64,000 nucleotides of DNA. It comes from a virus. The translations under genes were made by a program, and so were the position numbers. This document shows positions 20,237 to 56,793 of this stretch, piece by piece (position 1 is the stretch's first letter; the number at the start of each line of letters is the position of its first letter). The stretch lies in the IMG/VR virus record IMGVR_UViG_3300037325_000203; one strand, given 5' to 3'. Under the pieces are notes generated by a model. It was not told where the DNA came from and did no database searches. It saw nothing but the letters and a program-made list of their open reading frames with translations.

Positions 20237-20280
20237 ATTACCCCGCGCATTATAAACTATTTATCTATGTGCGGGATAAT
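20237..20280 (-). promoter_or_regulatory. RBS-sequestering hairpin with late promoter in its loop
   Basis: ATTATCCCGCACAT pairs with ATGCGCGGGGTAAT (13 of 14 pairs); GATAAATA in loop; directly before the HNH ATG. Confidence 0.8.
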
Positions 20281-20783
20281 CAGCCACTACACGCGACACA
20301 ATTTTCTTCCTCTGTTTTAATCACAGAATCAATTGTAGCATTGGCTTTAATTGTTCTAATATAGTAAATTGACTTGATTCCTTTACGATGTGCGTAATGT
20401 ATTGCATCGTATAATTGCTTTGCTGTAAAACTCTCATTACGTTGATCGAATATTAACTCCATAGAGCACCCTGTATCAATAAATTTCTGCAATTCGGAAA
20501 CGACATCGATAATTTCTGTTGCCGTATGCTTTGGAAATGTTTTACCGTATGCAATAGGATTATCTTTAAGAAATTTTGCAACAACTACAAGTTTACCATT
20601 CTTGTTATCTTCTGAAAAGAAGGAATCATAAACAGGTAAGATACTTGCACTAGAGTCCATATAGATCGAAGTACTTGTATTATGACTTACTATGCCATTT
20701 CCCATAAAATACGCATGAGAAGATGGAACTTCAAAATCTGCTGTCGGAATAGTCATTCCTTTTTCTATTTTTTTAATTTTCAT
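20280..20783 (-). CDS. nrdA: Split intein C-half (35 aa) + NrdA C-terminal extein
   Basis: MKIKKIEK...DFEVPSSHAYFMGNGIVSHN|TSTS; extein has QKFID..S, SIYY and terminal CVAC. Confidence 0.93.
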   Translation of the reverse strand: MKIKKIEKGMTIPTADFEVPSSHAYFMGNGIVSHNTSTSIYMDSSASILPVYDSFFSEDNKNGKLVVVAKFLKDNPIAYGKTFPKHTATEIIDVVSELQKFIDTGCSMELIFDQRNESFTAKQLYDAIHYAHRKGIKSIYYIRTIKANATIDSVIKTEEENCVACSG

Positions 20784-22023
20784 TTATAAAATTCCCCAGT
20801 TTATTAAATATGTATTGTTCTTGCATGGGTAAACTAAGCACTTCCCACACATGAATTATGTCGAATCCGTTCTTTACTGCTATGTCACGTTTTAGCTCAT
20901 CGTTATTATATTGTTCATCGGCCGATTTACCAAAGGGTGTTCTCCATGTTGTCCATTCTGCGTCAGATAATCCGAGCTTGTACGGGTGCCAAACTTTTCC
21001 GTTATATTCTACAATTAATTTCATAGACGGTATGCAAAAATCATACAACTTCGGTAATTTAGATTTATCATTGTATAACATTAATTCCTCGCTATCACCT
21101 ACACCCCATTTTATATCATTTCTATTAATGCCATGCCTTCTTAGGTATTTGTATATAGGTAATAAAAATTTAAATGCTGCTTTGGACGATTTATGCCGTT
21201 TTGTTCTATTAAATCCTGCTCTTGCAAATATTATTTCTCTTGCTCTCTCAATTCCGTGTGTTTTAGCCAACGATTCAAATTTACCACTCTCAGATCGTTT
21301 TAAATTAATATTATTATATTCGTCTAACGTATTATTGAATACATGACCGGCGCGTGATGAGGAAAATGAATTTCTATCATTCTTACTGTTGTATAACTTC
21401 GTGCCTTGTTCTTTACCGAATTTTTCTACATAGTATTCCAGTGTATTACTATAAGATACCCTATCACAAAACTGTTTATATTTTACCGGGCCATCACTTA
21501 CACCGTACCTTCTTGTGAATGACGGCAGATTGCCCGCAGTTTCAGTCTTAATCTTTGCTATCTTTTCTACAGCAGTCTCTACTGAATACCCCAAATTAAT
21601 CCATGTACTTATGTCATACGAATTAGGTGGTTTATTTTTGCACTTTGCCTGCGCAATCGGCGCATCCTCGTCAAAGTAATCATTGAAGAATAATGATGTA
21701 TTACATTCGTGGTTGCCTTGTCGTTTAAAGAATAAAGCATTAACCCATGCACGAGATATGCGCAATGTATTCATGCCATATTTAATATATATTTTAAAAA
21801 TAGTTGCAAGGTTGTATGATGTGTATTCATTGTGATATAAACCCATGAATAAATCTCGGGCTTGAGATTCTATGTAAGTAGACAGTATTATACCACGTGC
21901 ATTTAAATATCCACTCAGAGATTCTAATTTTTCAAAAGAAAAATTAGAATCTCTCCTGACACATTTTAAAAAATTAGACCCCGAAATTTTATATATCTTA
22001 TTATCGTATTTTACAACTGACAT
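20773..22023 (-). mobile_element. Free-standing Vsr/DUF559-like endonuclease between the nrdA halves
   Basis: RYG..G repeats; LYDFCIP...IVEYNGKVWH...K...A..NGF....VWE. Confidence 0.8.
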
Positions 22024-22042
22024 GCCCGGCTTCCAATACTTG

Positions 22043-24214
22043 TCAGTTATTTATCATATTTATGTCGACTATTTCCATCTCTTCCGTCATATTTTCCACT
22101 TTAATCCATTGGTTGCCGTCATTTGTTTTAACCAATAGCATATGATTGGGTGTGAATGAATATGTAATCCCGTCCTCGAATGTAATATCTGTGGTCTCTT
22201 GTATTCCGTTCCACCAAATTCTTTCAACAAATTCAGTGTCGCCTTTCGGTGTGTTAACTTCGACAGGTAATTTTAATTCTATCCAATGCTGTGGCAACTC
22301 TATCAACTCGTGTATCTTCAAACCATCATTCTCTAATATCTGTCTAATGGTTGTTAGTCCAGCAATAGTCATTACCTTGTCGTCTAACGAATGGCAATTT
22401 GGAGCAGGGCTTGTTAATTGACTATTACGCATACCATGTACATCTATCTCGGACTGTAATGCTTTCCAGTCATACTTACCGGAAGCATGTTCTGCAAACT
22501 GGCTAATTCGATTTCCGTTTTTCCACTCAGAAGATTCGAACGCACCAAACGACCCGAATCTCTTAGATAACTCTATACTGGATAACACTGCATGATATTC
22601 CACGCACTCTGCAATTTGCCTAATATAGTCTAGGTCTCTGAAATTCATGTACTCCCTGGCAAGGTGGTCGTGCAAACCTTGCAAGCCAATGCCAATTGTT
22701 CTATATCTGTTGTTATGAGCGTGAGTTACAAGATCAGGTGCGCTAGTCAGGCTGATGCCATAATCCAATATACGTGTTGTTAATTCAGAAACTTTACCTA
22801 ATTCTTTAAAATCTTTAATGTTGCCTAATACAATAGAAGCTAGATTACAAACATGGCCTAACTCGTCCGGTTTAACATTAGAAAAGGACTCTGTGCATAA
22901 ATTTACACAAGGAATACCGATGTGACCGTTAGTATCTCCCTTATTCGGATTATACTCGTTGATGGTGTCAGTGAATGCAATGTATGGTAGACCAGTTTCG
23001 AACTGTATACGCATTATAATTTTCATCAGATCACGGGCATTATCGAATTTTCGAGTTACGATTAGTTTACCTTCCTTGGCAGCTGATTCAATTTTAAGGT
23101 ATGCTTCTGTAAATGCAGAACCATACATTCCGCGAACATCAATACCTAATTTTTTCTTAACCTCATACGGGCAAAAGGTATGCCATTCTCCCCTGTTAAG
23201 ATCTCTTTCCATGAAAATGTCTGGAATTGTAACCTGGGGAAACACGTCGTATGCCTTCATTCTCGGGTCACCGTGTTCTGTTTGCATATCCAAGAAGTCA
23301 AGCACATCATTATGCCAGATAGGAAGTGCTATAGTTCCTGCACCAGCCCGCTTACCACCCTGATTAACTGCAACTAACGTATCATTGAGAATTTTGACCC
23401 ACTGAACAACTGTTCCTGCTGCATTCTGATAACCATTTACATCTGCGCCCTTGGCTCGGAGATATCCTAGGAATAAACCTATGCCGCCCCCGTTCTTAGA
23501 AATTAATGCAACACGCTTGATATTATCAAAAATACTGTCTATATCGTCTTCTATAGCAATAATAAAACAAGATGCAACGTTTCCTCCCTTTCTAAGATTA
23601 GATAGGAAAGGTGTTGCTAAAGAAATCTTACGCAGAGAAAGCGCATTATATACTTCCTTTACGAATTTTAACCTAGTCTCTACTGGTTCTAATTGACCGA
23701 ATCGCATTGCATTGACCATATGCATATGTTGATTTAGTTCATGCTTACCTAAATATTTTTTCTTTGCAGTAATGAGACTTGCATAACTATGATCCAAGTC
23801 TCGATTCATTTTAATCGACGAACTTAGCTCCTCTATATCTACGTCTGTATAGAACTCTAAAAGTTCCGATGAGTAATGTCTATTCTTAACATTATAATGA
23901 ACCACTTCTTTAAAGGACTTTCCGCGAAGTGTAAAGTTTGCCCATTCATCCATCGCTAGTGCGCGGCCAGCGACATTCACCCAGTCCGGTGCCGAAGGCG
24001 AAGCAAGCTGTATTGCGTGCTGAATTACATTCAGTTGAATATCACGCGTCTTTATACCTGGCTTTAGAAACTGATCAAACTTGGATTCAAGTTCTAAAGG
24101 ATTAACATCCTGTCCTTCTGCTGCCATTTGTATAGATTTCTTAATCTTAGAAACATCATAAGGCTCTTTCGTACCGTCACGTTTCTCTACCATTATTTCT
24201 CTAACTGTTGCCAT
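22043..24214 (-). CDS. nrdA: NrdA N-terminal extein + split intein N-half (117 aa)
   Basis: ATP-cone VEKRDG, SCF, NLCTE, CNL; ...SPAPN|CHSLDDKV...FTPNH (block B) then stop. Confidence 0.95.
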   Translation of the reverse strand: MATVREIMVEKRDGTKEPYDVSKIKKSIQMAAEGQDVNPLELESKFDQFLKPGIKTRDIQLNVIQHAIQLASPSAPDWVNVAGRALAMDEWANFTLRGKSFKEVVHYNVKNRHYSSELLEFYTDVDIEELSSSIKMNRDLDHSYASLITAKKKYLGKHELNQHMHMVNAMRFGQLEPVETRLKFVKEVYNALSLRKISLATPFLSNLRKGGNVASCFIIAIEDDIDSIFDNIKRVALISKNGGGIGLFLGYLRAKGADVNGYQNAAGTVVQWVKILNDTLVAVNQGGKRAGAGTIALPIWHNDVLDFLDMQTEHGDPRMKAYDVFPQVTIPDIFMERDLNRGEWHTFCPYEVKKKLGIDVRGMYGSAFTEAYLKIESAAKEGKLIVTRKFDNARDLMKIIMRIQFETGLPYIAFTDTINEYNPNKGDTNGHIGIPCVNLCTESFSNVKPDELGHVCNLASIVLGNIKDFKELGKVSELTTRILDYGISLTSAPDLVTHAHNNRYRTIGIGLQGLHDHLAREYMNFRDLDYIRQIAECVEYHAVLSSIELSKRFGSFGAFESSEWKNGNRISQFAEHASGKYDWKALQSEIDVHGMRNSQLTSPAPNCHSLDDKVMTIAGLTTIRQILENDGLKIHELIELPQHWIELKLPVEVNTPKGDTEFVERIWWNGIQETTDITFEDGITYSFTPNHMLLVKTNDGNQWIKVENMTEEMEIVDINMINN

Positions 24215-24227
24215 GTACCTGTTCTCT

Positions 24228-24665
24228 CTATGTTATTACTTTTATTTCATTCCTCGAAAATCTTCTTAGAATCTCGACACTACCTTGTATCTCCGGGTAC
24301 ATATTTACCTTGCCTAATTCGTAATTCAAAATATATCGATTACCAATGATGGGCAAAAGAAATATCCCATCTACGTCTTGTACCAAAATCAAGTCAATAT
24401 CGACATATTCCGTTGACATAGCTATGGTATAGAACATGAGTATGCTTATGGAACTTGTGCAGAATAATCCGTGATGCAGGATCTCCCAAGGAGTGGGCCA
24501 GTCTTTTGGACTATAGTAATCGACGGATCTAGAACCGAATGGTATATGGGCGCAAAATTTGGCAACTTCTTCTAGCTGTTCTTGTTGCTCCATAGCCTGT
24601 ATAGATATTCTAAGCTTTTTCCAAAGATTAAGACGCTCGGCGTCGGGTATAGATGCCCAAATCAT
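24228..24665 (-). CDS. Conserved hypothetical protein
   Basis: WPTPWEIL..G.FC motif; directly upstream of nrdA. Confidence 0.7.
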   Translation of the reverse strand: MIWASIPDAERLNLWKKLRISIQAMEQQEQLEEVAKFCAHIPFGSRSVDYYSPKDWPTPWEILHHGLFCTSSISILMFYTIAMSTEYVDIDLILVQDVDGIFLLPIIGNRYILNYELGKVNMYPEIQGSVEILRRFSRNEIKVIT

Positions 24666-24725
24666 TCTGTTTTAATTTTGTTAGAGTAGGTAGGAAAGTA
24701 TGTCATGTATTTGTATGTGATGTAT

Positions 24726-25391: not shown

Positions 25392-25397
25392 TGGCTA

Positions 25398-25426
25398 AGT
25401 ATAACAGAAAGAGTATCCATAGTCAA
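25398..25426 (-). promoter_or_regulatory. sigma70 promoter with extended -10, probably leaderless
   Basis: TTGACT-N17-TATACT with TGn, 6 nt before ATG 25391. Confidence 0.75.
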
Positions 25427-25430
25427 AATC

Positions 25431-26855: not shown

Positions 26856-26859
26856 TTTT

Positions 26860-35636: not shown

Positions 35637-36983
35637 CTAGTTTTTCTTATTCTTAATGAAGGCCCTTAGTATTGCTGCTCCGGCAAGCGGGTCGGGCTTG
35701 TTTTCCCTTCGAGTGATAGATGTAACGTCCTCCGATTCGACACCTAATTTCTCACTAGCCCTGATAATACTCTTTTGCTTTAGCTTCTCATAAATATCCT
35801 TAGATGTAGCAGTAATGGCGCCATCATCCCCTTCCTCTAAGTCACTAATCCTTAGGCTCCTGTTGTTAAATGCTAAATCGACCTTGGATCCTACACCCGA
35901 ACTAGATCGAGTTTTCATAAACTGGATCTGATAGCGACCGCCTTCCTTCATCGCGGCGCTAGTAAAAATGCCTATGACATTATCTGCTGTGTTAACTTTA
36001 GAGATACCACCAGCGATGTGACTAGGATCGAATTCTATTTGTTCGTACGAATTGCGATTTAGCTGGGATGCAGATACAGTCACTGTCTGCAATTCTACTG
36101 CTAAGTTACGTAGCTCTTCTGTTATATATTTGTCCTTAACAAACAAATTTTCTGCAGATATCTTTTTACTCATTGGCATCATTAAGTCTAAGTAGTCAAC
36201 TAAAATTGCATCGACTTTGCGTTTAGCATATATTTCATATTCCTTGATGTAAGCTCGTATATCGTTGGAAGTACACCCATTAGGCAGTTGCTTAACCCTT
36301 AACGACCCTCCACTTTTTTGCTGCGATGATCTGACCTTCATGTGTACATCGTCGATATTTCTCATGACTTCTCGAGTCTCATACCCAGTGTGCATCGCAT
36401 CTATACGCATAGCACACAATTTTTCACTTAGTTCCAAGGAAAGGTATACCACATTCAGACCAGACATGGCCCAATTTACTGCAAGGTTCTGTAAGAAAAG
36501 GGATTTTCCTGCACCAGAATTATGGGACGATATTCCGTTAGTATAGTACCTGTGATTTTCACTATCTACTACCAAATCAAATACAAGATCTGTTTCATTT
36601 GTATCCAGAATATCAGACACTATTCTAAATCCGTTATCGGATAATAATTTATCACCTATTTGTAAATTAATTATAGATACCCAGCACCCGTATATATTCT
36701 CAAACATATGCATAGGAGACGCTGTAACATATGTACCGTCGGTAAATTGGACGCAATAAATTTCATAACTTCCCTTGCTAATCAAATGCTTAACTGGTAC
36801 ATAGCCATCCGGCGAATCTACAAACCAATCATTTTTACATTTATTTAAATCAAAGATATTATATTCGATCGGTTGCATTTCAAGATATAATCTTTCAAAT
36901 GTGTCTATGTCCTGAGATTGATATTTAATTAATGTTTCTCTATCGTAAAACTGTGATAGGTATTCAATTTTTTCGTAATTCAT
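35637..36983 (-). CDS. gp41: Split intein C-half (155 aa, long) + gp41 helicase C-terminal extein
   Basis: SPDGYVPV...TASPMH (block B)...FDLVV..HRYYTNGISSHN|SGAGKS; extein has SLELSE, VDYLD, SQLNR, KTR. Confidence 0.93.
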   Translation of the reverse strand: MNYEKIEYLSQFYDRETLIKYQSQDIDTFERLYLEMQPIEYNIFDLNKCKNDWFVDSPDGYVPVKHLISKGSYEIYCVQFTDGTYVTASPMHMFENIYGCWVSIINLQIGDKLLSDNGFRIVSDILDTNETDLVFDLVVDSENHRYYTNGISSHNSGAGKSLFLQNLAVNWAMSGLNVVYLSLELSEKLCAMRIDAMHTGYETREVMRNIDDVHMKVRSSQQKSGGSLRVKQLPNGCTSNDIRAYIKEYEIYAKRKVDAILVDYLDLMMPMSKKISAENLFVKDKYITEELRNLAVELQTVTVSASQLNRNSYEQIEFDPSHIAGGISKVNTADNVIGIFTSAAMKEGGRYQIQFMKTRSSSGVGSKVDLAFNNRSLRISDLEEGDDGAITATSKDIYEKLKQKSIIRASEKLGVESEDVTSITRRENKPDPLAGAAILRAFIKNKKN

Positions 36984-38055
36984 TTATTTTAAAATTCCTA
37001 TTTTTTAAATCATTATTCCAGAATACATAATATTTTGTGCCTGTAAAAGTATTTAATATGTGATTTTTCTTTATATTATCGTTTCGATAACTATCCCCGT
37101 AAGTCCCGAGATGTGGCAAAGGCTTGTTATCTACTTCTATTATTTTATTAGATAATTCTTCTTTATAATCTGAGAAATTTATATGCCCGGGGCCGTGAAA
37201 CTCCATAATACACAGTAATTCTTTCTTCGCCGAATCTGCAAATACAGCTAAATCATATCTTCTAAATCCTGCAGTGGGTATCCATTGGAAATACTGTTCA
37301 GTTGGTGCACCGAACATACAATTTTCTCTATTGATATTATTTTGTTCTATAAATAGATTTACTGCCTGCATTTCCTGGCCGTTAATATTAAAGGATTTCT
37401 GAAGGGTCTTTAAGTAATGAGCCGACCTTTCGTCTTGTGTCTTGTTTTTCCAAGTCTGTTTCCGCTTATTGCAAGCATATCTGTATTTAATTGCACCTTC
37501 TATAGTTCCGTATTTCTCTATATAAAACGGTAACCCGCGTGCCTGATATGTTGTTACTAATACCTCAGCAGATTCTTTATCGTATCCCTTCTTTTCCCAG
37601 TATTCAACACACCTTACACTACACTTTCGATGATTTTTATTTCGGGAACTACCGGAGGCCATGATCTGATGATTTCTTACCTTCTCTATCGCCTCTGCTT
37701 CGGTAAATCCTTGATTTGTCCAATATATCTTTCTCGATGGAAAATAATCTTTGATTTTCGATAAATTATTATTCCATCTCTTTAAACCTAATTCGGCTCC
37801 ATACAAAATACAAAAATATTCGACACTCATTCTCTCATGTTTTAAAAGATCGAATTCTCGACTAATAACATCGGAATACCCTTGTTTTAAAAACCAGGCC
37901 AGGCGCATAAAATGATCTTGCGATTTTCTATAACCGCGCAAATCGAAATAGTCTAATAATCCACTTTCCTGTTCTGGTGTCAATAATATATCTGATAATA
38001 TTTTCTTAACTACTTTTATGTTTAAAAACTTCCTGATATACATTTTCCTGTTCAT
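36964..38055 (-). mobile_element. Free-standing Vsr-like endonuclease between the gp41 halves
   Basis: YW..G...EA and KYG...G repeats; RYDLAV...MEFHGPGH...FW; start moved to MNRK (AAGGGA RBS, late promoter at 38091). Confidence 0.75.
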
Positions 38056-38725
38056 AATAAATTCCCTTTTGCTGATCACTCTGGCTAAAGTATTTATCAA
38101 TATCTATAACTCTTATTGCTTTTACTTTGGTGTCCGCAGTAACGCACTGACCTGCAAATATTGTTAGTTCGCCTTTATTAAGTCCGCCGTATAATTTTTC
38201 ATCTACTGTTTTCCACCCCGTAGAGCACTGACCTTTGCCTTCCCGAATAGCCTCTAGGCGCTCTTTCGGGTTTGCGTAATAATCTGTTCCCAGGTCTTTA
38301 ACTAGTGCAATTTGTACAGCCGCTTTAATAGTTGCCTCGACTTCCCCGTATCTTCCTTCGTCGAGTAGATCAGGAGATGCAAGAATGGCATCTCTAAGTG
38401 CTTTGTGTCTACAGAATTTTTCAAACTCTCTCAGAAACCATTCGTCATGCAGGGCGGCCTCGGCCTCCATCATGTTAATTTCTTTCCTAGTAACCGCTTT
38501 GATTTGTACTAAGGATGGTATGCTCACGAAGTCTGTGCTATATCCTTCAATAAATGCCACTGTGTCCCTGTTTTGCTTATCGTCGAAATACTCGGACTTC
38601 AATATTCCTTTGCATCTGACAAACAGGTCAGGTTTACTCATCATGAAGCTAATGAACAGATCTTCTATGTCCGTACTGTAGTCATTAATTTCGCTTGCGT
38701 TTTCTGTCTCTAGCATTTTGTTCAA
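38006..38725 (-). CDS. gp41: gp41/DnaB-like helicase N-terminal extein + short split intein N-half (46 aa)
   Basis: DLGTDYY, STGW..VD.KLYGG..KGEL.IFAGQ|CVTADTKV. Confidence 0.92.
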   Translation of the reverse strand: MNKMLETENASEINDYSTDIEDLFISFMMSKPDLFVRCKGILKSEYFDDKQNRDTVAFIEGYSTDFVSIPSLVQIKAVTRKEINMMEAEAALHDEWFLREFEKFCRHKALRDAILASPDLLDEGRYGEVEATIKAAVQIALVKDLGTDYYANPKERLEAIREGKGQCSTGWKTVDEKLYGGLNKGELTIFAGQCVTADTKVKAIRVIDIDKYFSQSDQQKGIYYEQENVYQEVFKHKSS

Positions 38726-41128: not shown

Positions 41129-41500
41129 ATGATTAATTCGCAAGATATCCAGATAAAATTTCCCTTTTTAACCGGGTTAAAGTCTTATACCCAAGAATAT
41201 ATAGGTATTATTCAGAATTCCGATGACAAAATCATTAGTTTTTACGATTACGAGTCTATAAGAACATCGGCGGAAAAAATAGTATTTCTAGAACACGGGG
41301 AAACATGGTGGTGGGAGAGTAATAGATTATTACCTATTAACATATTTTTGCAAGGGCAGATGATACCGTTTCGTTACTGTCTAAAAACAGTAGTAAATAA
41401 AGATATCGAAATAATGTTTGGCTCAGTTACAAGTCTAAATAATATTATGAAAAAACGCATTAAAAAGCGTCAAATTCAACTAATACGTAAGTCTGACTAA
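41129..41500 (+). CDS. Conserved hypothetical protein
   Basis: FPFLT...YIGIIQN...WWWESNR..PI..FL; TATAAATA 7 nt upstream. Confidence 0.75.
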   Translation: MINSQDIQIKFPFLTGLKSYTQEYIGIIQNSDDKIISFYDYESIRTSAEKIVFLEHGETWWWESNRLLPINIFLQGQMIPFRYCLKTVVNKDIEIMFGSVTSLNNIMKKRIKKRQIQLIRKSD

Positions 41501-43143
41501 GGTAGTACGGGTCTAGTCCAGGCCCATACATCGACCCCGCAATCCCATATTCTGTCATATCCATGATCTTGCATATTCTCCCATTCGGTGCGGCCAGGGT
41601 TGAAATTATCTAGTAATTTAGATAGTTTATGCTTTTGATATTTCATTCTATTTTCAAAAGATTTATAATTATTTGTATAATAGTAAGATGGTGGAGAAGT
41701 AGATATAAATTCGAATCCCAAATTACCATAAACTGCCCCACTTCCGTACTGTTTGTCGGAATAGCTAATAACATTCTCTGGATTAACAGTCTTAATAAAA
41801 TGTTTAAATAATTTACTCGCTCCGCCTATCACAGTTGTGCCGAGTATTGTGGAAAATCTAAGAAGTTCCCATTTATATGCAGAATTAAATCGTGGCTTTC
41901 CAAATGTCATAACAGAATACAGCGTATCGCCAATATATAGCCCGATTTCGACCGATGAGCCGCAGTCACCCTGCAGATGAGAGTATTCTAAAAATTTAAC
42001 TTTGTCCGACTTAGACACTGGACGTATTTCACACTTCCTTGCGTAGATTTTTTTAGAACAATTAAACTTATTCGAAATTCTAGATTTAATTATATCCTTC
42101 TTTGTATTCCACAGATGTTCCCAAACAAAGAACACATCTATCCCTCTTTCCTTACATGCGTTCAGTTTATCGATATGATACTTGTTTCCTCGATTATTTA
42201 ATTCACTATGCCAATACGACCCATTAACCTCTATGGCAAATAAGATGTCATCGAAATAAATATCTAATTCTTTCGGTGATATAATCTTACGTGTATCTGT
42301 TTGCATAGATAAAATATTAGATAAACTTAGAGATTTTATATATTCGATGACCTCTTGCTGAATGCTAGATTTGAATGTAATCTGTATATTAAACTGCTTA
42401 ATTCTCGATCGTAATGTATCAATTGATATGTCTAAGAATTTGGATAACCCGACAAGGCCGTAACGAGTTAATAGTAATATTAATTCTTGCTCATTATCTA
42501 TAGCAGCTCGTACTGCGGATGGTATAAGCGATAATTGAAAACTTGTTGCTCCATACTTTTCGACACATGTATCCCTGATCTTGGACTTAGTTGATTCGAG
42601 TAAGTGGGTTGATCTAATTTTCTCAATTATTGAATCTGCCTTGGATGCAATCTCATTACCATATCTAGCCTTGCATGTTTCCCTTATTTTTAATTCAATC
42701 TCTTTACATAAGATAGGGTGTTCAACGCCATACCGTTCTAATAACGTTTTTCGTCTCAATTCTCTTATCAAATAATCAGACTGTGGATTGCCGTTATAGT
42801 TTTTCTCCCATGTGTTAGTTTGTTTGCTCTTTAACTCGCTATTCTGGCACGCAAAAGGCACTCCATACTTTTCTATCATAGATGCTTGCTGCCTGGCCCT
42901 GACTTCTGCTAGTTTAAATGGGTTAGATACCCCATATTTTTTAATATTACTATCGGTACGAGTATTAATAATGTCTATACTTTTACTTGGGTTATCGACA
43001 CCATACTTCTTTATGTTAGTGGCTTTTCGTTTAATGATTGTATTTTTAGAATTATGTCTGGACCTGCACGACATTGAGCAGAAATCAGACTGCTTACCGT
43101 GTTTTGTTATTATCGCATCTGCATCACAATTAAGACATTTCAT
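41497..43143 (-). mobile_element. Putative homing endonuclease: Zn finger + KYGV repeats + Vsr-like nuclease + Mom-like GNAT
   Basis: Paralog of 16872..18650: ELDIYF..AIEVNGSYWH; IYARKC..HLQG..MTFG..ELLR..GASKL..SYSD..WDCG. Confidence 0.75.
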
Positions 43144-43183: not shown

Positions 43184-43771
43184 TTAATCTTTTTCCATTC
43201 TTTCTATCAGAAGATTAAGGTTTACTACGATGGCGATTGCATACGCAATTCCGTGACCTCTTTTAAATTGATAGCTGGACATAACTTCCTTTTCCCATAC
43301 CTTCTTTTGTATTTCTTCCCATGGGGAGTTTTTTAAATAGGACTTCGACGGACGAATAATTGCAAGTATCATAGCTAGGTCTTCTACCGATGTAGGTTTG
43401 TACCTGACAAGTAGGTCGCTGTGCCCCTTCAAATGAAACAATTGATCAGTAACCTCCTGATATAGGAAGAAATCCCACGGAGGTTCCCTGTCTATAAGAC
43501 GAAGCAGATGGTCCTCGTTTTCTATCCCTGAGTACATGTTTACATTGAGAAAGTCTATCTTAAAATATCCATACTCGTTTGCAATTCTGTGATCTAATGT
43601 AGATGTATTCGTGACGGGATCTCTAGGAATATTCTGAAAATATACACCAGTTGGGTGCTTCTCGAATTTGTCGTTTGGACGATCTATCCTGCCATATATA
43701 CACTCCATACTGTCCAGTATCTTATCTCTGCCGAATACGTCTATGTCTACATCAGTTGCTACTTTTTTCAA
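43184..43771 (-). CDS. dnaE: Minimal DNA polymerase III alpha (DnaE)-like catalytic fragment
   Basis: DVDID, KHPTGVY, YFKIDFL, LAIIRP, YQFKRGHGIAYA. Confidence 0.8.
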   Translation of the reverse strand: MKKVATDVDIDVFGRDKILDSMECIYGRIDRPNDKFEKHPTGVYFQNIPRDPVTNTSTLDHRIANEYGYFKIDFLNVNMYSGIENEDHLLRLIDREPPWDFFLYQEVTDQLFHLKGHSDLLVRYKPTSVEDLAMILAIIRPSKSYLKNSPWEEIQKKVWEKEVMSSYQFKRGHGIAYAIAIVVNLNLLIERMEKD

Positions 43772-46569: not shown

Positions 46570-46896
46570 TTTGTTTCTTTTATGTAATTCCCAGTCGTCA
46601 TCTAACTTTTTCATATCACGCTGTATTGCTACTTTACCTACGGGAATCATACCAGGACATATTCCGCATTTTATAAGATAATCGCATAACATGTTTTCAA
46701 ATCCAAGATGTCTAACTGACATAAATGTTATGGAATGTGCAGTCGGCGAGTTGTCTTCGAACACTAAGTTCATCATTGACATAGGAGGGGATCCTTCTAG
46801 TCTTTCCTCGCACGTTACGTCTAATTTGTTTGCTTCAAAAAAAGTCTTTAGCAGACTTACATATCCCCACGAGATATTACTTTCTACAGCCGACAT
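46555..46896 (-). CDS. Hypothetical protein
   Basis: Start moved to MSAVESN (TAATG overlap with uvsW stop). Confidence 0.55.
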   Translation of the reverse strand: MSAVESNISWGYVSLLKTFFEANKLDVTCEERLEGSPPMSMMNLVFEDNSPTAHSITFMSVRHLGFENMLCDYLIKCGICPGMIPVGKVAIQRDMKKLDDDWELHKRNKLRFR

Positions 46897-47738
46897 TAGT
46901 ATTTTACCTTTGTAACTGTATAAGGGTACTCTGCCTCGGCATAGAACTTTTTTCGTTGAGTTAAATGCCTCTTTGAGAACTTGCAATTTGAACAAACATC
47001 GTAGACGTTCACGAAGTCCTTGTCCTCCGCAACCCTGATGCCGCGGCCTATGCTCTGAATTACTCTCACAAAACTCTTGCCAGACTCGAAGAGAACAAGA
47101 TTAAAAATACGCACAATGTTAATGCCTGTAGAAGCAACCCCGTAAGTTGCAATAATGACCTTCCCGTCTACTTCTTGTACTTCCTTATATTCATCTTTCC
47201 TGTCTTTAGATTTCATTTTTCCTGAAACAAATACAGAATCCGGTATAAGCGATTGTAACAGGGTTCCCGTCTCGATTCTATCTACCAATACTAGCGTGTT
47301 GCCAGATGCTGACATTTCAATAACAGACTTGGCAAGAAACTTTAACCTAGTCTGGCTTGTGGTCAACCACTTTAACTCTGCTTGATAGTTAGTGAATGCA
47401 GCTTCTCCTAAATCTTGAAGCTGCCAAACATTAACATGCAACTGTGCAAGTATTCCTTTGTCTTGCAGCTCTTTTGTTCTGATTTTTCCAAGCATAGGTC
47501 CAATACATGCAAGGACAGACATTCTTTCGTGATCCTGTTCGGGCATAGTGCCTGTTAGCCCCCACCTAATCGGCACGTGGGACAAATAAGTCGACAATAG
47601 CTTTCTCAATACATCTGCCTTTGCTTTGTGGCAATTCTGAACTACTGCATCATTAACGATAAAGTTATGGTCATCTTTTATACCTAATGTATATACTTCG
47701 GGCGGCTTATCTATTTCTGTTCTTAATATAAGTTTCAT
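46896..47738 (-). CDS. uvsW: Split intein C-half (35 aa) + UvsW helicase C-terminal extein
   Basis: MKLILR...VYTLGIKDDHNFIVNDAVVQN|CH; extein has GLTGT, STGINI, QSIGRGIR. Confidence 0.92.
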   Translation of the reverse strand: MKLILRTEIDKPPEVYTLGIKDDHNFIVNDAVVQNCHKAKADVLRKLLSTYLSHVPIRWGLTGTMPEQDHERMSVLACIGPMLGKIRTKELQDKGILAQLHVNVWQLQDLGEAAFTNYQAELKWLTTSQTRLKFLAKSVIEMSASGNTLVLVDRIETGTLLQSLIPDSVFVSGKMKSKDRKDEYKEVQEVDGKVIIATYGVASTGINIVRIFNLVLFESGKSFVRVIQSIGRGIRVAEDKDFVNVYDVCSNCKFSKRHLTQRKKFYAEAEYPYTVTKVKY

Positions 47739-48751
47739 GTATTTATGCTTTTTACACTATCATCAACATCTAACTGATCTGCTCGTACCCAACCTCGTTG
47801 AGTTAAAAACTTATGATTTCCTGTAACTTTTATTTTCTTATTATTATCGAACTCTAATTCATACATTTTTTCATTTGACGATTTTGTCAGATTTTTATAG
47901 ACTGCATCAACGGTATCTTCTTTGAATATATTCTCCATTTCTGAATAGTTTATTATCCTATCCCCGACTTTTATTTCCGATATTTTCAAATAGCCCAATG
48001 ATGTCAAGACTAATGCATCTGGGTGAAAACATTCGTCCACCATAACGCAGACCACTCCCTTGAAGAAAGCGATTATATCTATTTCTAAATCGGTTCCTTT
48101 CGAACGCTTTGCCAGGCTTTCCAAACTTTGCCATGTACATATAGTATGAGTCTTCAGATACTCCTTCCTATCTCCAAAAAATACCCCGACATCGAGTCCG
48201 AGATTAGTATAATCTTCTTCGGTCTGTGTTACTAAATCCTTAGTAGGCACGATTACTATACTGCGACCATACGGCTGGACCTTGTGGCTAAGAATCGCCG
48301 TTATTAGTGTCTTTCCAGCACCTGTAGGGGCGATAGCGACGCCTGCTAAGTTCTCTAAATAAGAATTGATAACGTCGACTTGATGCTCTCGAAGTGTTAT
48401 GGGTTCGCCGGTCTTGACATGCCCTTTGGGCCAGGAATGCGCGGCATAGCTATTTTCATCTACCTTAGTAAACTCGAATACGTGCTGATCCCTCATATCT
48501 TCGATATCAATATCGAAACCATGTTGTTGTACAATGGGTAGTAATATGTCCAACAGATTCAAATAAGATCTGCCGCCTACATCGCAGAAACTCATACATC
48601 CATCCCATCTGCCTAGTTTGTAGCTGGGCATATGTCTTGCGTGCTGCAAGAAAAACTTTACCGAATCTACTAACTTACGTCGAGTAGAAACATCGAGCCC
48701 GTCTAGCTTAACGTTTACTTCGTCTTGAATTATTAATTTACATGTTGCCAT
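47735..48751 (-). CDS. uvsW: UvsW SF2 helicase N-terminal extein + split intein N-half (98 aa)
   Basis: LREHQ, PTGAGKT, TWQSL, VMVDE|CFHPDALV...VTGNH...GWVRA; start moved to MATCK. Confidence 0.92.
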   Translation of the reverse strand: MATCKLIIQDEVNVKLDGLDVSTRRKLVDSVKFFLQHARHMPSYKLGRWDGCMSFCDVGGRSYLNLLDILLPIVQQHGFDIDIEDMRDQHVFEFTKVDENSYAAHSWPKGHVKTGEPITLREHQVDVINSYLENLAGVAIAPTGAGKTLITAILSHKVQPYGRSIVIVPTKDLVTQTEEDYTNLGLDVGVFFGDRKEYLKTHTICTWQSLESLAKRSKGTDLEIDIIAFFKGVVCVMVDECFHPDALVLTSLGYLKISEIKVGDRIINYSEMENIFKEDTVDAVYKNLTKSSNEKMYELEFDNNKKIKVTGNHKFLTQRGWVRADQLDVDDSVKSINT

Positions 48752-48761
48752 TATTCTTCCA

Positions 48762-49223
48762 TTACATACTTGCATCGTCCAGACCTGCCACACGCAATTT
48801 AACAATGTGTCCAGTCATGAAATTCTTTGCTTCGAAGCCCTTTGTGATACCCAAAAACTTATTCCTCAGCAGTGCAACTTCATTTATTAGCATAGTCGAA
48901 TCGACAATACCGGGGACTCCGTCTACGTATTTCTCAGCATCTCGAGAACTTAATACCTTGTTATATGCTTCTATAAATACTTTAAATTGAGCCGATCTAT
49001 CCTTTTTCAACTGTATGTTGAGGTATTCCAGAACTGCCTCAATTTCTTGTAATTGGGAATACCTATGCTCGACTACGCCGGGCAGTTCTGCGGCATGCTT
49101 CTCTAGCGTCTTCCCTTTTAGTGATAATTCCATTCTTGCTTTATCGAGCTCTAACTCAAAAAAGCCGATAAAATCGGGGATGTTTGATAGATCACTCGTC
49201 ACTTTGTAATACCAATTGCTCAT
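48762..49223 (-). CDS. uvsY: Recombination mediator UvsY-like
   Basis: Coiled coil, LSSRDAEKYVDG, KLR.AG; between uvsX and uvsW. Confidence 0.7.
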   Translation of the reverse strand: MSNWYYKVTSDLSNIPDFIGFFELELDKARMELSLKGKTLEKHAAELPGVVEHRYSQLQEIEAVLEYLNIQLKKDRSAQFKVFIEAYNKVLSSRDAEKYVDGVPGIVDSTMLINEVALLRNKFLGITKGFEAKNFMTGHIVKLRVAGLDDASM

Positions 49224-51005: not shown

Positions 51006-51028
51006 TGGGGCAAGTTGACACCTGCCCC
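51006..51028 (-). terminator. GC-rich hairpin after gene 32
   Basis: GGGGCAGGT-GTCA-ACTTGCCCC; weak U tail. Confidence 0.5.
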
Positions 51029-51037
51029 GGTTAAGGA

Positions 51038-52066: not shown

Positions 52067-52172
52067 GATTTTGTTTTCCTGTGCTTTAACGCTATTAATT
52101 GAGTTGCTAGCCTACTCAGGACACGTTAATCCTTTTTGCGCCTACCTTCTACGAACATTTCGTACAGCAACT

Positions 52173-52201
52173 ATTTTACGAAATTTTTATAACTTTGTCA
52201 A
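52173..52201 (-). promoter_or_regulatory. sigma70 promoter for gene 32
   Basis: TTGACA-N17-TAAAAT. Confidence 0.75.
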
Positions 52202-52208
52202 GGACTTC

Positions 52209-53693
52209 TTAATAGAAATTCTTAATATATTTATCAAACATTGTGTCTATGGCCATCGACTCTTTAATATCTTTCTTTTCTGAAAATTCTTCTATTTTTG
52301 CATTTTCAAAAACCTGAGACAGCACTGCTTTTTCGAAATCGTTTACAACACCTTCTTTACATAGCTTGGTGCCTATTTTTCCAATGAATCCTGCAAGTTC
52401 ATCATTCTCTACCAATCTGAGTGCAAGTTCGCTTAACTTAAACCCCATCCGGGCATTGTCGCTGGCAAATTCGAACATCGGCGTACTATTTATAGATCCT
52501 CGACGCAGAGTAACTGTATTTGCGGCAGCTTCTTCAATGCGTTTACGAAAGGAATCTTTTTCCTGGACTAGCTGTTTCACAATAGGGAGGACTTCCTCGA
52601 ACTTCTCGTCAAATCTACGGACGGTGAAAAGGTCTTTGAGACCCGATACATCGTCTTCGGCCAATATCTCTTGCTCTAGTGTCTCGACACGAGCCCTAAT
52701 GGTTTCATAAGTCTTTGTGCCGGTGAACTTTTTAAGTTCGGTACGAAGTGTTTCGATACTCTCTTTAATGGTCTCAATGATTCCCGAACTATCTTCATTA
52801 ATCAATTTATTCGTAGTCACGTATCGGTTAAACGACTGTAGCTTCAGTAGCTGGCTTGTACTTTCAGTGATATGGTGCCCTACCTTATCTGTCATTGTGC
52901 CGGCGTGAGCCAGGTGTTGAGCCATAGCCCTGGCGCCTGGCAAATAATTGTGAGGGAAACGAAATCGTTCGCCGTTGCTTTCTAAGAAAATAGAGGAAAT
53001 ATGGCGGCTACGCGAGCCTCTTACTGTCTCGTCCACTGGAGTTTTGTGTCTGACTAGTATCTTTACATTTTCTAATGTTTGATGTGATGTCTTTAAGGAA
53101 CCAAACATCTTACTGAAACTTTCTGTAATTGCTTCTTCCACGGACTTTCCATACACAGGCTGTTTACCCATATACTGAATAATTTCAATTTTGTCATCGT
53201 GCTGTAAGGCGTTCAATGCGCGCTGTACGTCGTTTAGGTCTGCACCGGGTATACTGGATGCGAGAGCTTCTGCTGTCATACCAGAAGTATATCCTAATTC
53301 GTGATAGACCTTAGATAACATTAGACTGTTGGTTTTGTACCCTTCCATCATGGCCGACTCCTGTTCTGCTTTAGCCTTGTAAGAGAAATCCCTTGGCTGA
53401 ATTGTTTTACCAAAAACTTTTATATCTGAATTCATCAGGAAACTATCTGCTAATTTCCTAATTTGTTTCTGTACATTTAAAATCGAATCATCATCTGTCG
53501 ACCCTTTGCTAAACTCTACAGCGTTACCTTCCTCATCTATAGTAACCATAAGGTTCGGTGTTAGTACGAAAAATCTACGGCCGTCTGCGGGATTAGTTGT
53601 TTCGGCGCCGGCCTGATCGAAAATTTTAATTTTCAATCCGTTACCTTTTAACAATGAAAAAATCTTTCCAGCAAGATCGTCTATTTCAACCAT
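52209..53693 (-). CDS. Conserved head-associated protein
   Basis: Tandem late promoters at 53712 and 53720; GERF..P...L.GARAMA.H motif. Confidence 0.65.
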   Translation of the reverse strand: MVEIDDLAGKIFSLLKGNGLKIKIFDQAGAETTNPADGRRFFVLTPNLMVTIDEEGNAVEFSKGSTDDDSILNVQKQIRKLADSFLMNSDIKVFGKTIQPRDFSYKAKAEQESAMMEGYKTNSLMLSKVYHELGYTSGMTAEALASSIPGADLNDVQRALNALQHDDKIEIIQYMGKQPVYGKSVEEAITESFSKMFGSLKTSHQTLENVKILVRHKTPVDETVRGSRSRHISSIFLESNGERFRFPHNYLPGARAMAQHLAHAGTMTDKVGHHITESTSQLLKLQSFNRYVTTNKLINEDSSGIIETIKESIETLRTELKKFTGTKTYETIRARVETLEQEILAEDDVSGLKDLFTVRRFDEKFEEVLPIVKQLVQEKDSFRKRIEEAAANTVTLRRGSINSTPMFEFASDNARMGFKLSELALRLVENDELAGFIGKIGTKLCKEGVVNDFEKAVLSQVFENAKIEEFSEKKDIKESMAIDTMFDKYIKNFY

Positions 53694-53741
53694 TTATATT
53701 TCCCTTTTCATTATTTATCTATTTATCAAACAATTGCTGTG

Positions 53742-54827
53742 TCAGATAAAAATAGGCATAGGAGAATCATAGCTGTTATCGTCTGAGGATGCTATATTAC
53801 TATTAGTTGCAGCTTGTGATTGGTCATCCCACGTAGAAATATAATCTGTCATGCGTAATGCAAGGATAAGAGCCATGATTAAATCATCTGTCTGCCCGTT
53901 TCTTGCTTCGTACGTATTACCTCTAGACACGAATACCTTAAGCTCGGAGATTATTCCCCTGGAGTTGAGTTTCAGTCGTTGGGATTCTAACAAAAACTTC
54001 AATTTGGCGCAAGCTTCGAGCTTAGACTTATTAGTAGTTACAAACCCGGCACGCCGGCCCGACTTTCCTTGTAATCTATTCTTAGGGTCGTGTAGCATTG
54101 TTCCGGGAAAGTTTTCCTCGCCTGTATCCCTAATGACTACTAATGCTGCTTCACCAAGTGTATTGCTTTCTACTGACCAGTATATTTCTGGACGCCCTGC
54201 TGCTGCCAGTTCTTCCAGTATATTACGCATAGTCCTGACCTGATCTTCAACTGGCGCCTTATTGTTACTCCATTCTGCAACTTGCACTAGCGTAGGCAGT
54301 TCAATGACCTGTATTGCAGAATTATCGCCGCCGGTTCCCATAGCAGGATCTAATGCAACAACATATGTCAGGTCTGCTCTAATCGGCGAATACCATCTTA
54401 CTTGCCCGGTCTTTCTGATCGGCTGAATGGATGTAATTTGACTTAGCTTAACGGCATTGATAAGAGTTTCTTCGAAGGTAATAAACTGGCAATTCGAAAC
54501 TAAAATACCATTTCCATAAAATCTATTGCCGCCGTGGACACCTATAACATCATAAACATTAGACACCGCACCGGTGTATATCGACCCAATAAGTTGCAAA
54601 TGTCCATAGATAGATAACACCATATCGCCTAATTTAATATCCTTTGCCTCTATCATATCACTATCATTTATATAGATCTTATGATCGTCAGTGCATTCTA
54701 AAAATATACCATTAGGAAAATCTAATCTAATTATTGCCTTTTCGCCCATGAATGCTATGCCGGCAAAAGGCATATAACCGTCAGGGGTATTTATTTGTAA
54801 TCCTAGTGTATTTTCTCTATAGATCAT
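53742..54827 (-). CDS. gp17: Split intein C-half (112 aa, long) + terminase nuclease-domain extein
   Basis: TPDGY..F...ECTDDH (block B)...VYD...FYGNGILVSN|CQF; extein has LDPAMG.GGD, ESN, DDL.MA. Confidence 0.92.
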   Translation of the reverse strand: MIYRENTLGLQINTPDGYMPFAGIAFMGEKAIIRLDFPNGIFLECTDDHKIYINDSDMIEAKDIKLGDMVLSIYGHLQLIGSIYTGAVSNVYDVIGVHGGNRFYGNGILVSNCQFITFEETLINAVKLSQITSIQPIRKTGQVRWYSPIRADLTYVVALDPAMGTGGDNSAIQVIELPTLVQVAEWSNNKAPVEDQVRTMRNILEELAAAGRPEIYWSVESNTLGEAALVVIRDTGEENFPGTMLHDPKNRLQGKSGRRAGFVTTNKSKLEACAKLKFLLESQRLKLNSRGIISELKVFVSRGNTYEARNGQTDDLIMALILALRMTDYISTWDDQSQAATNSNIASSDDNSYDSPMPIFI

Positions 54828-55872
54828 ATCTTAATATCTCATATTCTGTTAGTGTCTTAAATAACCATACTTCGTATTTATGCCCCTTAGATAAGACTGC
54901 ATCTTTCTTTTTAAGATTATTGATTAATCTCGACTTATAGATATCCTTTAGGTCGCCATTGCCATCCCACCAATACTGTGCCTTAACCTCGATGATTCGA
55001 TTTTCTGCTGGAATAAAAATATCAGGATAATATTTTAATAGTTTTCTGTCATTTGTTACATATTCGAATATAGGTAATTCATATTTTTCAAGTGAATTAT
55101 GTATGATTAAGTCGGTCTCGACATACCCTTGATTAAATAATGAATCTAATACTTTATTTTCATATCCTCGTATGTGAACTATCTTTCCGGACGGTAATAT
55201 ATAATCCTTACCTATTGCGTTAGACTGACGTGACTTCTTAATTGCCTCTGGTATAAGAAATGTACAACTCACGCCAAATTTTTCTATATTTGTCAATCGA
55301 CGGATCTGATTTATCTCATTCTGTTCTTCTATAGTTTTATTTCTATTTGTTTCTGCAGATTTCTGCCACCCTGCATAATATTCGTTTCCGTATTTTCTTA
55401 GCTTTGTAGCTCTTGATTTATTTTTATTATTAGTCGATTGAGTGGAATGTACGACCCCAAATTTTACTAAATTCGTGTCTTTTCTTTTTTTAATAATCTC
55501 ATTATATTCATCGTCTGTGCGCTGTGAGACTGCAAATTTTTTATTTGCTTTATCACTCTCTTGCTGTTCTTTAGACCATCGAGATTTAGTAGCATGTACT
55601 TCTTTTCCTACACATGCCGTACTACCGCATGTCTTGCCATAGGTGTGATCCTTTTGGTAGAATGTCTTAGGAGAATTGCAGTGCAGACACTGCTCCTTAG
55701 TACCTGTTATGTATTTTTCGTAATATTGTTGATACGAAATATTATTATTTCGTAAATGCCTAGTGAATTGCCCATTAGACTTACAATACCGCACATTGTC
55801 AATTATTGATGTAATATAGGTTGCTTCACTCATTATGATTTCGATTAAATAGTTATTTTCCAAACTATTCAT
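54817..55872 (-). mobile_element. Free-standing PD-(D/E)XK endonuclease between the terminase halves
   Basis: CxxC motifs, KFGV/KYG repeats, RGYE, YYPDIFI....IIEVK; start may be 55833. Confidence 0.8.
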
Positions 55873-55875
55873 CTC

Positions 55876-56793
55876 TTAGCCTAACATACCGAATAGGTCT
55901 CCGATTGTTATGTCGAATTTTTCAGTATTTTTATCCGATATTTGTAAGAGTGTTGTTTGCGCGCAACACTTATGCTCACGAAGGAAACGGTCCTCGCCTA
56001 AGGACGCGAGCTGTTCATCTGCCCAACTTTCGTCTCTGTCAGGATGAGCTTCCCACGTAGCCATATACGGCTTAAATCCATTAGTGCCCGTGACTGTTTC
56101 GTTGCCATTATTATCCACTAGCTTGTTGGCGTTGAACCAAATGTCGGCGAACTGGTCTTCATCGGTATTCGGCGTTGATGTGATTATGCACTTACCGCCC
56201 GTCGATAGTGTCGGTGCCAATGAAGTCCAGAATTCTTTTGCAATGTTTGCATCGACGAAAGCGAACTCATCCAGATAGATTAACGATAACGCCATTCCTC
56301 GACCTGTGTTTTGTGTAGTCGTTGTTGCCGTGATTTTAGAACCGTTGTCGAACACAATGGAGCGTTTGTTATATGTCGTTACTCCTGCTCGTATATGGTC
56401 TGGTACAGATTCATACGCATAGCGAACCCTGTCCATGATATCCTGTGCAGAGTCGTACTTGTAGGATGTTACTAATATCTGTGAATCATCGGTGAACATT
56501 GCGTACCATAGGAGATACCCTGCGGCAACAGCAGTCTTGCCCATCTGCCTACTTACCATATTCACTGATTTTTTGAAGTGAGTATATGAATCAATTAAAT
56601 CTAATTGAAAATCGTATGGTGAAAATTTTTGTTTTCCCCGGGTCGAGTGCTGCACATACATGAAGTTGGAAACAAAATACAAAGGACCCGTGTCGGGATC
56701 CATACATGCAGCGAGCTGGTCTATCTGCTCCTTTGTATAGGATACCTTTGTATACGCACGCTTAACTAACTTATCGTCTTGATATATTGCCAC
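55876..56793 (-). CDS. gp17: Terminase large subunit ATPase extein + short split intein N-half (30 aa)
   Basis: YDFQ, SRQMGKT, GRG, LDEFAF, STPN, FLREHK|CCAQTTLLQI...ITIGDLF. Confidence 0.93.
   Translation of the reverse strand: MAIYQDDKLVKRAYTKVSYTKEQIDQLAACMDPDTGPLYFVSNFMYVQHSTRGKQKFSPYDFQLDLIDSYTHFKKSVNMVSRQMGKTAVAAGYLLWYAMFTDDSQILVTSYKYDSAQDIMDRVRYAYESVPDHIRAGVTTYNKRSIVFDNGSKITATTTTQNTGRGMALSLIYLDEFAFVDANIAKEFWTSLAPTLSTGGKCIITSTPNTDEDQFADIWFNANKLVDNNGNETVTGTNGFKPYMATWEAHPDRDESWADEQLASLGEDRFLREHKCCAQTTLLQISDKNTEKFDITIGDLFGMLG

Follow-up and report, generated by a model that had tools for sequence, protein, structure and literature searches.

Does a phage with four broken core genes, each apparently mended by its own split intein, owe them to four separate invasions by mobile elements or to selection for a coordinated set? 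This question is raised by the IMG/VR virus record IMGVR_UViG_3300037325_000203, a 64,000-nt stretch of DNA that was analysed as a whole and is referred to here as the window. Translation of the window reveals that nrdA, the gene for a gp41-type helicase, uvsW and terL are each encoded by two minus-strand open reading frames (ORFs) within 36 kb; all long ORFs between 20 and 58 kb are found on this strand in the ORF listing of the window. We propose, with a probability of roughly 80%, that the four genes were independently invaded by mobile intein/endonuclease cassettes and that their products are joined by protein trans-splicing. The pieces are arranged as follows:

nrdA, minus strand: N-piece 22043-24214; intervening ORF of 416 amino acids (aa) 20773-22023; C-piece 20280-20783
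gp41-type helicase gene, minus strand: N-piece 38006-38725; intervening ORF of 378 aa 36964-38100; C-piece 35637-36983
uvsW, minus strand: N-piece 47735-48805; no intervening ORF (ATGA overlap); C-piece 46896-47738
terL, minus strand: N-piece 55876-56793; intervening ORF of 351 aa 54817-55872; C-piece 53742-54827

A preliminary description of this DNA had claimed that these core genes are fractured and carry split-intein halves, and the layout, the Pfam assignments of the exteins and the exact junctions all agree with it. Cutting at the motifs it named reproduced exactly its lengths for the N- and C-terminal intein halves (IntN/IntC), namely 117/35, 46/155, 98/35 and 30/112 aa for nrdA, gp41, uvsW and terL, respectively. 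The Pfam profile Ribonuc_red_lgC is cut at positions 389/391 in nrdA, DnaB_C is found in the gp41 C-piece, and ResIII and Helicase_C as well as Terminase_6N and Terminase_6C are distributed over the two uvsW and the two terL pieces, respectively. In each of the four genes, two same-strand ORFs thus carry exteins which abut in intact homologues: the last base of the N-extein (X) is directly followed by the first base of the C-extein (X+1), a junction gap of 0, in comparison with intein-free IMG/VR loci (52 for nrdA, 79 for gp41, 44 for uvsW and 75 for terL). Splicing had also been said to restore conserved motifs. For nrdA, gp41 and terL, the predicted spliced peptide is indeed the commonest intein-free peptide, with a slash marking the junction: TSPAPN/TSTSIY in 36/52 loci, TIFAGQ/SGAGKS in 21/79 and FLREHK/CQFITF in 32/75. 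In uvsW, intein-bearing alleles read DE/CH and intein-free alleles mostly DE/VH or DE/TH. A cysteine confined to intein-bearing alleles is what one would expect of an intein that depends on a +1 nucleophile.

The view that each gene carries a different split intein is also borne out, as all four are of the class 1 type and have intact catalytic blocks: C1, TPNH and HN/T in nrdA; C1, SPMH and HN/S in gp41; C1, TGNH and QN/C in uvsW; and C1, TDDH and SN/C in terL. In alignments, these catalytic residues are invariant among the alleles of relatives. A profile search of the halves, which the preliminary description had suggested, matched Pfam Intein_splicing to the NrdA-N, gp41-C and UvsW-N pieces. 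The gp41, terL and uvsW inteins match solved inteins by sequence, and a model of the nrdA IntN matches almost only inteins, consistent with a Hint fold in all four. Each split was found again in other assemblies, in different sequences with the same architecture. Judged from the genes, protein trans-splicing of all four fractured gene products is very likely. The proposed division into two canonical and two atypical splits agrees with our assignment of nrdA and uvsW to the canonical S0 position, and the atypical pair differs in type, with terL being S2 and gp41 S1.

In the reading that we favour, mobile intein and homing-endonuclease cassettes would have entered the four genes separately, and each gene would have become fractured. 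After translation, the IntN and IntC halves would associate and fold into a Hint domain, and class 1 trans-splicing would proceed by an acyl shift at Cys1, attack by Thr+1, Ser+1 or Cys+1 and then cyclisation of the terminal Asn. Ligation of the exteins would yield intact NrdA, gp41 helicase, UvsW and TerL. The cassettes appear to be at different stages, with nrdA, gp41 and terL keeping a free-standing endonuclease gene and uvsW having presumably lost its own, and three split positions are predicted: nrdA and uvsW are cut at the canonical S0 site, terL at S2, behind the first helix, and gp41 at S1, behind strand 2.

That single fractured phage genes with split inteins are known, as had been stated, is in accordance with the loci of Dassa et al. 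(2009; PMC2677866), who described fractured gp41-1 to -9, NrdA-1 to -7 and NrdJ-1/2 from GOS metagenomes as well as IMPDH, DnaE, ligase and terminase loci, with the complete split inteins being of the canonical type. Like these loci, those of the window lie on one strand and are composed of an N-extein with IntN, a free-standing endonuclease gene with its own control elements and an IntC with the C-extein, and gp41-7, which has no endonuclease, parallels uvsW of the window. In contrast to the short single-gene assemblies of that study, the window holds four such loci on one contig, and uvsW is not among its eight enzyme types.

The gp41-type helicase gene is composed of the following parts:

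38147-38725, minus strand: N-extein, 193 aa, ending with TIFAGQ inside the Walker A loop; 79 relatives run on into SGAGKS
38009-38146, minus strand: IntN tail of the ORF, 46 aa, with a conserved core in the first ~16-20 aa (CVTADTKVKAIRVIDIDKYF, ~38087-38146)
36964-38100, minus strand: free-standing ORF between the halves, 378 aa from a TTG, with a likely ATG at 38055
36519-36983, minus strand: IntC, 155 aa, S1-type, block B SPMH, ending with SSHN before Ser+1
35640-36518, minus strand: C-extein, 293 aa, DnaB_C ATPase from SGAGKS onwards (Pfam DnaB_C, E 5e-16)

By its sequence, the gp41 intein is an S1 split with a predicted functional IntN core of ~16-20 aa. An alignment of contiguous and split forms shows that only CVTADTKVKAIRVIDI(DKYF) is conserved in the IntN, and the remaining ~26-30 residues of the tail are a variable linker over the AAGGGA ribosome-binding site and ATG of the endonuclease gene. 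Similarly, the IntN of locus L301, which comes from another sample, is 80% identical over 20 aa and unrelated beyond that. The intervening ORF, for which no Pfam or PHROG match was obtained, is presumed to be a homing endonuclease of an unnamed family; a 361-aa ORF at the same position in L301 is 49% identical to it, it is weakly similar to the nrdA endonuclease (E 2e-4) and GATAAATA is located 36 nt upstream of its ATG. The IntC begins with a leader of ~50 aa (YLSQFY...MQP.EY.I.DL) that is conserved in both split and contiguous forms and is therefore part of the intein. Residues Y13, P38, H92, S153-H154-N155 and S156 are invariant. More than 120 protein clusters are related to this IntC, among them helicases of ~650 aa with a contiguous intein, and its best PDB match is VidaL (6vgv_A, residues 55-154 against 44-141, E 3.5e-8); the gp41 IntN, a short half, has no PDB match on its own. 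Atypical S1 splits have been described for VidaL and PolB16, with IntN halves of 16 and 15 aa, respectively, and S2 splits for AceL-TerL and GOS-TerL (PMC13014065). VidaL (Burton et al., 2020; 6VGV) is cysteine-dependent with a 16-aa IntN, comparable to the ~16-20-aa core and S1 split after strand 2 of the window intein, which differs from VidaL by its non-conserved IntN tail of ~26-30 aa, by Ser+1 in the helicase P-loop and by ~27 more residues before the DSPDGY motif of the IntC, which correspond to the conserved leader.

A complex prediction with residues 184-239 of the N-piece and 1-170 of the C-piece gave a score of 0.82, as compared to 0.01 for the best control, a mark which is reached by 58/80 solved complexes and 2/110 mismatched pairs. 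At least 85% of the contacts agreed between runs, the partner pLDDT was at least 59, and confident contacts were predicted on IntN residues 1-14 and up to residue 23. The score may reflect likeness to the solved, fused VidaL and does not prove binding. Contiguous VidaL-like gp41 inteins are present in P0007, P0011, P0015, P0025, P0026, P0031 and others, and these have a variable linker of 15-25 aa exactly where the split forms hold the endonuclease gene. Contiguous and split gp41 inteins are thus natural before/after pairs for studying the origin of the S1 atypical split.

The second atypical split is that of terL:

55969-56793, minus strand: N-extein, 275 aa, ATPase domain, ending with FLREHK (Pfam Terminase_6N, E 5e-22)
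55879-55968, minus strand: IntN, 30 aa, S2-type atypical, beginning with Cys-Cys
54817-55872, minus strand: free-standing intervening homing-endonuclease gene, 351 aa (DUF7487, E 1e-29; phrog_3339, E 1.5e-10)
54492-54827, minus strand: IntC, 112 aa, block B TDDH, ending with LVSN before Cys+1
53745-54491, minus strand: C-extein, 249 aa, RNaseH-like nuclease domain (Pfam Terminase_6C)

The 30-aa IntN alone has no PDB sequence match. The pattern of the window IntN is repeated in the 31-aa IntN of loci L067 and L070, and L005 has a 50-aa form and keeps only a remnant of the endonuclease gene. The window IntC shares 42% identity with that of L005 and 31-32% with those of L067/L070, and its PDB matches are CatC, which belongs to a consensus of the AceL/GOS-TerL inteins (6dsl_B, E 8.5e-8), followed by VidaL (E 6e-5). 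The AceL/GOS/Cat-TerL family has IntN halves of 25-37 aa (25 in AceL-TerL and 37 in GOS-TerL) and IntC halves of ~104-115 aa (PMC11766414). With the same host gene and 30/112 aa, the window intein is within the range of these systems (Thiel, 2014, Bachmann and Mootz, 2015, Stevens, 2018; 6DSL), and it shares the nucleophiles Cys1 and Cys+1 with AceL and Cat. It differs from the family by an identity of only ~30%, by its own Cys-Cys IntN start and by the intact DUF7487 gene between the halves.

The two canonical pairs, nrdA (117/35) and uvsW (98/35), are split at the same endonuclease-insertion point as Npu/Ssp DnaE, gp41-1 and NrdJ-1. Their lengths are similar to those of canonical inteins, which have an IntN of ~100-120 aa and an IntC of ~35 aa, the sequence similarity is low, and the nrdA intein uses Thr+1. 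The parts of nrdA are:

22397-24214, minus strand: N-extein, 606 aa, with ATP-cone, all-alpha domain and the first 389 positions of the ribonucleotide reductase (RNR) barrel profile (Pfam)
22046-22396, minus strand: IntN, 117 aa, canonical S0, Cys1, block B TPNH; stop codon at 22043-22045
20773-22023, minus strand: free-standing homing-endonuclease-like gene, 416 aa (phrog_559, E 1.6e-7; phrog_3339, E 3.4e-4; homing/HNH)
20679-20783, minus strand: IntC, 35 aa, ending with GIVSHN before Thr+1; start codon within the last codons of the endonuclease ORF
20283-20678, minus strand: C-extein, 132 aa; contains the tyrosine pair of SIYYIR as well as cysteines at the C-terminus (Pfam profile positions 391-523)

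The N-extein is 75-85% identical to the intact NrdA of relatives and stops exactly at SPAPN, and the C-extein can be aligned with the C-terminal end of class I RNR alpha chains of solved structure. Among 5.8 billion proteins, no more than four are related to the nrdA IntN (45-64% identity), with Cys1 and T-x-x-H being invariant. It matches Pfam Intein_splicing with an E-value of 0.0035, and this divergent half has no PDB sequence match on its own. The top fold matches of its AlphaFold2 (AF2) model (pLDDT 77) are almost all inteins, with the Npu DnaE IntN first (E 1.7e-3); the TM-score is only 0.3-0.4, a low value that is expected as a half-domain was modelled. An identical architecture is found in locus L298, with an N-piece of 719 aa, a 412-aa ORF and a C-piece of 166 aa, followed by nrdB. 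Its junction is the same (...GNGIVSHN/TSTS), and identity to the window is 75-78% for the exteins, 71% for the IntC, 60% for the IntN and 45% for the endonuclease, which lies at the same place. The window site APN/TSTS is not the thiyl-cysteine site of Dassa et al. (2009), which is used in a relative: at L302:14731-18249, nrdA is cut at the thiyl-radical cysteine site (VNL/CLTGDSEL...ILVHN/CTESFS) with a 283-aa HNH-like ORF in between. Two relatives of the nrdA IntN, P0122 and P0124 (~500 aa), have an IntC-like head (...VYDLVV...LGIVHN/GGKR) and the same IntN after SPAPN/CHSLDD. From these sequences, NrdA of their genomes appears to be made in three pieces, by way of two different split inteins in one gene.

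For uvsW, the parts are:

48032-48751, minus strand: N-extein, ending with VMVDE (Walker B / DExH; Pfam ResIII/DEAD)
47738-48031, minus strand: IntN, 98 aa, canonical S0, Cys1, block B TGNH (Pfam Intein_splicing, E 5e-9, above the cut-off)
47634-47738, minus strand: IntC, 35 aa, ending with VVQN, followed by Cys+1; the halves are not separated by an endonuclease gene
46899-47633, minus strand: C-extein, 245 aa, Helicase_C (Pfam)

The listed ORF has a TTG start at 48805, and the part that can be aligned with relatives begins with the ATG at 48751. The two uvsW ORFs overlap by 4 nt, with the stop of the IntN in the start of the IntC (ATGA), and the same overlap is seen in one ORF-less allele of a relative. 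The PDB matches of the IntN are the DnaB, DnaX and NrdJ-1 inteins. An insertion at the exact uvsW site is present in 62 loci, and the non-redundant alleles comprise 26 that are split with an ORF of ~300 aa, 3 with an intermediate gap, 8 split without an ORF and 1 that is contiguous. Cys1 and T/S-x-x-H are present in all 32 distinct IntN alleles, and the terminal Asn and Cys+1 are invariant in the 24 distinct IntC alleles, in which the penultimate residue is S, A, E or Q. VVQN is therefore normal for the uvsW family.

To assess how the four cassettes came together, their distribution among related phages has to be considered. The window is part of a metagenome-assembled, Rak2/121Q/CBB-like jumbo-phage genome: its UvsX is ~56-65% identical to those of the jumbo phages Vibrio 2.275.O, CBB, GAP32, Atu_ph07 and 121Q, and a megablast search with 10 kb of the window returned no nucleotide-level match among GenBank phages, so that these are relatives at the protein level only. 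Related IMG/VR genomes that are complete, as shown by terminal repeats, have lengths of 330-385 kb. We searched 296 related IMG/VR loci with separated extein, intein and endonuclease pieces, and surveyed 14 records for inteins with PF14890, which gives counts that are lower bounds. The uvsW intein is widespread among relatives. The gp41 intein is common in the wider collection, yet was found in 1/80 IMG/VR gp41 loci; the terL intein is present in three or four relatives, and the nrdA intein in four clusters overall and 0/52 IMG/VR loci. The contig L301/L302 has the same gp41 P-loop split and an nrdA that is fractured elsewhere. The closest relative contig, G014 (TerL 92% and UvsW intein 94-97% identical), shares just the uvsW split with the window and has another insertion in gp41, and its terL and gp41 P-loop site are intact. 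The insertion, ~1.5 kb long and located further downstream in gp41 (L297:5166-6688), has Hint matches and probably represents an intein at a second gp41 site. Among the complete relatives, G001-G003 have no Hint match, and G004-G005 have two loci each. No other fetched record has the same four inteins together, with a maximum of two intein loci per record elsewhere. These differing distributions fit an independent gain and loss of selfish cassettes.

The preliminary description had gone further: the four pairs would have been co-selected in nature as an orthogonal set and might form a post-translational gate, with splicing controlling deoxynucleotide (dNTP) supply, replication, recombination and packaging together. 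All eight fragments must share one infected cell, the four enzymes are important and are cut inside or beside key motifs, each of the inteins depends on cysteine and that of terL begins with Cys-Cys, so that redox sensitivity is conceivable, and at least 8 distinct uvsW alleles have stayed split after loss of the endonuclease. We nevertheless regard a co-selected set that gates these processes as improbable. Close relatives have intein-free alleles of each of the four genes, including the intact terL and gp41 P-loop site of G014 and the three complete genomes without Hint match, each intein has its own distribution and three of the cassettes still have selfish endonuclease genes. In the 14 surveyed records, eight had no match, one had one locus and five had two, counts that do not favour co-selection, and the gate finds no support from the same distributions. 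Persistence of uvsW after endonuclease loss is expected in any case, as precise intein deletion is rare. Pairwise identity among the four inteins is 22-28%, and the split topologies are complementary only for the nrdA/uvsW combination; the charge complementarity of the halves showed no clear pattern separating these two canonical pairs. This deep divergence and the mismatched topologies would suffice for mutual non-interference, making co-selection unnecessary. It has also been reported that 15/16 unrelated split inteins are orthogonal without co-selection (Pinto et al., 2020; PMC7090010), so that orthogonality is to be expected by default and does not point to design. A related idea, that the pairs were shaped by their shared cytoplasm, do not cross-react and undergo cysteine-dependent splicing conditional on the state of the infected cell, seems unlikely to us. 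If the shared cytoplasm had indeed shaped them, they would be a ready-made four-plex orthogonal toolkit with S0/S1/S2 topologies and Thr/Ser/Cys +1 nucleophiles, and conditional splicing would amount to a naturally occurring, intein-based control of a virus. The window itself does not show intein regulation of the phage life cycle.

One might also speculate that one or more pairs do not splice and that the intein halves serve as non-covalent association domains which hold the enzyme pieces together. A precedent is the nrdA of Aeromonas phage Aeh1 (mobE insertion; PMC3045599), which is also cut by a homing-endonuclease gene, with both pieces being needed, and is described as a fragmented RNR that has no intein and works by non-covalent assembly. 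The lack of a penultimate His in uvsW (VVQN) and terL (LVSN) would also fit. The window nrdA cut differs in being flanked by complete intein halves, and none of the four inteins has lost Cys1, the block B His, the terminal Asn or the +1 nucleophile, all of which are invariant across diverged alleles. Moreover, the +1 Cys of uvsW, restricted to intein-bearing alleles, makes sense only as a splicing nucleophile, and an unspliced 170-aa insert in the gp41 Walker A loop would be hard to tolerate. A non-splicing pair is thus very unlikely. It is barely credible that the splits are non-biological, that is, an artefact of assembly or sequencing, pseudogenes of a defective phage or group I introns removed from RNA, since, although the contig was assembled from a metagenome, two assemblies contain the same fragments, the architecture recurs with differing sequences in other samples and in-frame Hint blocks flank every interruption. 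Introns of groups I and II were rejected as an explanation and RNA-level splicing is unsupported, as no Rfam family matches anywhere in the window.

Several points weigh against independent invasion followed by trans-splicing. Splicing is deduced here from the genes, and uvsW and terL have no penultimate His, though its absence is normal in their families. The two assemblies in which the window fragments occur, JGI/IMG (161,363 bp) and Logan (74,452 bp), are possibly derived from the same reads, and strain-level chimerism of the metagenome contig is therefore possible. Given the size of its relatives, the genome of the window phage is seen only in part. Finally, PF14890 misses the terL intein even in the window and hence misses some inteins in relatives.

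The types of element found here, fractured genes and canonical, TerL-type and VidaL-type split inteins, have all been described before, and it is their number and variety in one genome that stand out. Inteins have been published in the TerL proteins of Rak2 and K64-1, and multi-intein phages are known, e.g. Campylobacter phage IBB_35. We found no description of several natural split inteins in one phage genome in the searchable literature, although an earlier report may exist outside it; judged by sequence, the four putative pairs with three split positions in 36 kb would be the densest natural collection found there. For protein engineering, they provide a naturally co-resident candidate set for orthogonality, including the rare Thr+1 NrdA intein family and a VidaL-like intein with natural contiguous and split forms. 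The stages of the gene-breaking model can be seen side by side: a contiguous intein, a split with an endonuclease gene, an endonuclease remnant and a split without endonuclease. The contig also hints at how atypical split sites come about, namely by insertion of an endonuclease gene into a variable loop of the intein.

The gene between the halves belongs to a named homing family in nrdA and terL and is an unnamed conserved ORF in gp41, with none in uvsW, and the three intervening ORFs are not close paralogues of one another. The motif SATAAATA, which resembles the T4 late promoter TATAAATA, has 25 matches in the window as compared to 12 +/- 3 expected, a number reached by no shuffle. Its sites include 20258, 22048, 22057, 28569, 31806, 35623, 38091, 47740, 53712 and 62079 on the minus strand, and most of the 25 copies are located 20-35 nt upstream of gene starts. 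Copies are found 25-34 nt upstream of the nrdA endonuclease start and 36 nt upstream of the gp41 one, in agreement with the observation of Dassa et al. (2009) that the invading gene carries its own control elements, and the copy at the endonuclease-less uvsW split point is possibly a relic. The IntC start codons sit within the last codons of the endonuclease ORFs. Two of the endonuclease genes have a promoter-like motif of their own, and the start of the downstream half inside the end of the endonuclease ORF suggests translational coupling.

Four further free-standing homing-endonuclease genes are present at 16872-18650, 41497-43143, 62101-63711 and 19574-20236, giving a total of seven endonuclease-like ORFs in 64 kb. 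Three of them are large paralogues (34-37% identical, DUF7487/phrog_3339), and an HNH-type gene is located between nrdA-C and nrdB. A Mom-like C-terminal domain was detected in the product of 41497-43143, a gene that is absent from G014. The neighbouring 43184-43771 codes for a 195-aa protein with weak similarity to the finger domain of DNA polymerase III alpha. As it covers all 197 positions of phrog_11778 ('DNA polymerase') and its counterpart in G014 is 71% identical, we consider it to be a small conserved protein that stands alone, rather than a piece of another fractured gene. Auxiliary genes at 979-13777 code for a ClpX-like ATPase, an FAD oxidoreductase and a thymidylate synthase, for a PTPS/QueD-like protein and GTP cyclohydrolase I, possibly of a 7-deazaguanine or pterin pathway, and for NAMPT and an NMNAT-NUDIX protein for NAD salvage.

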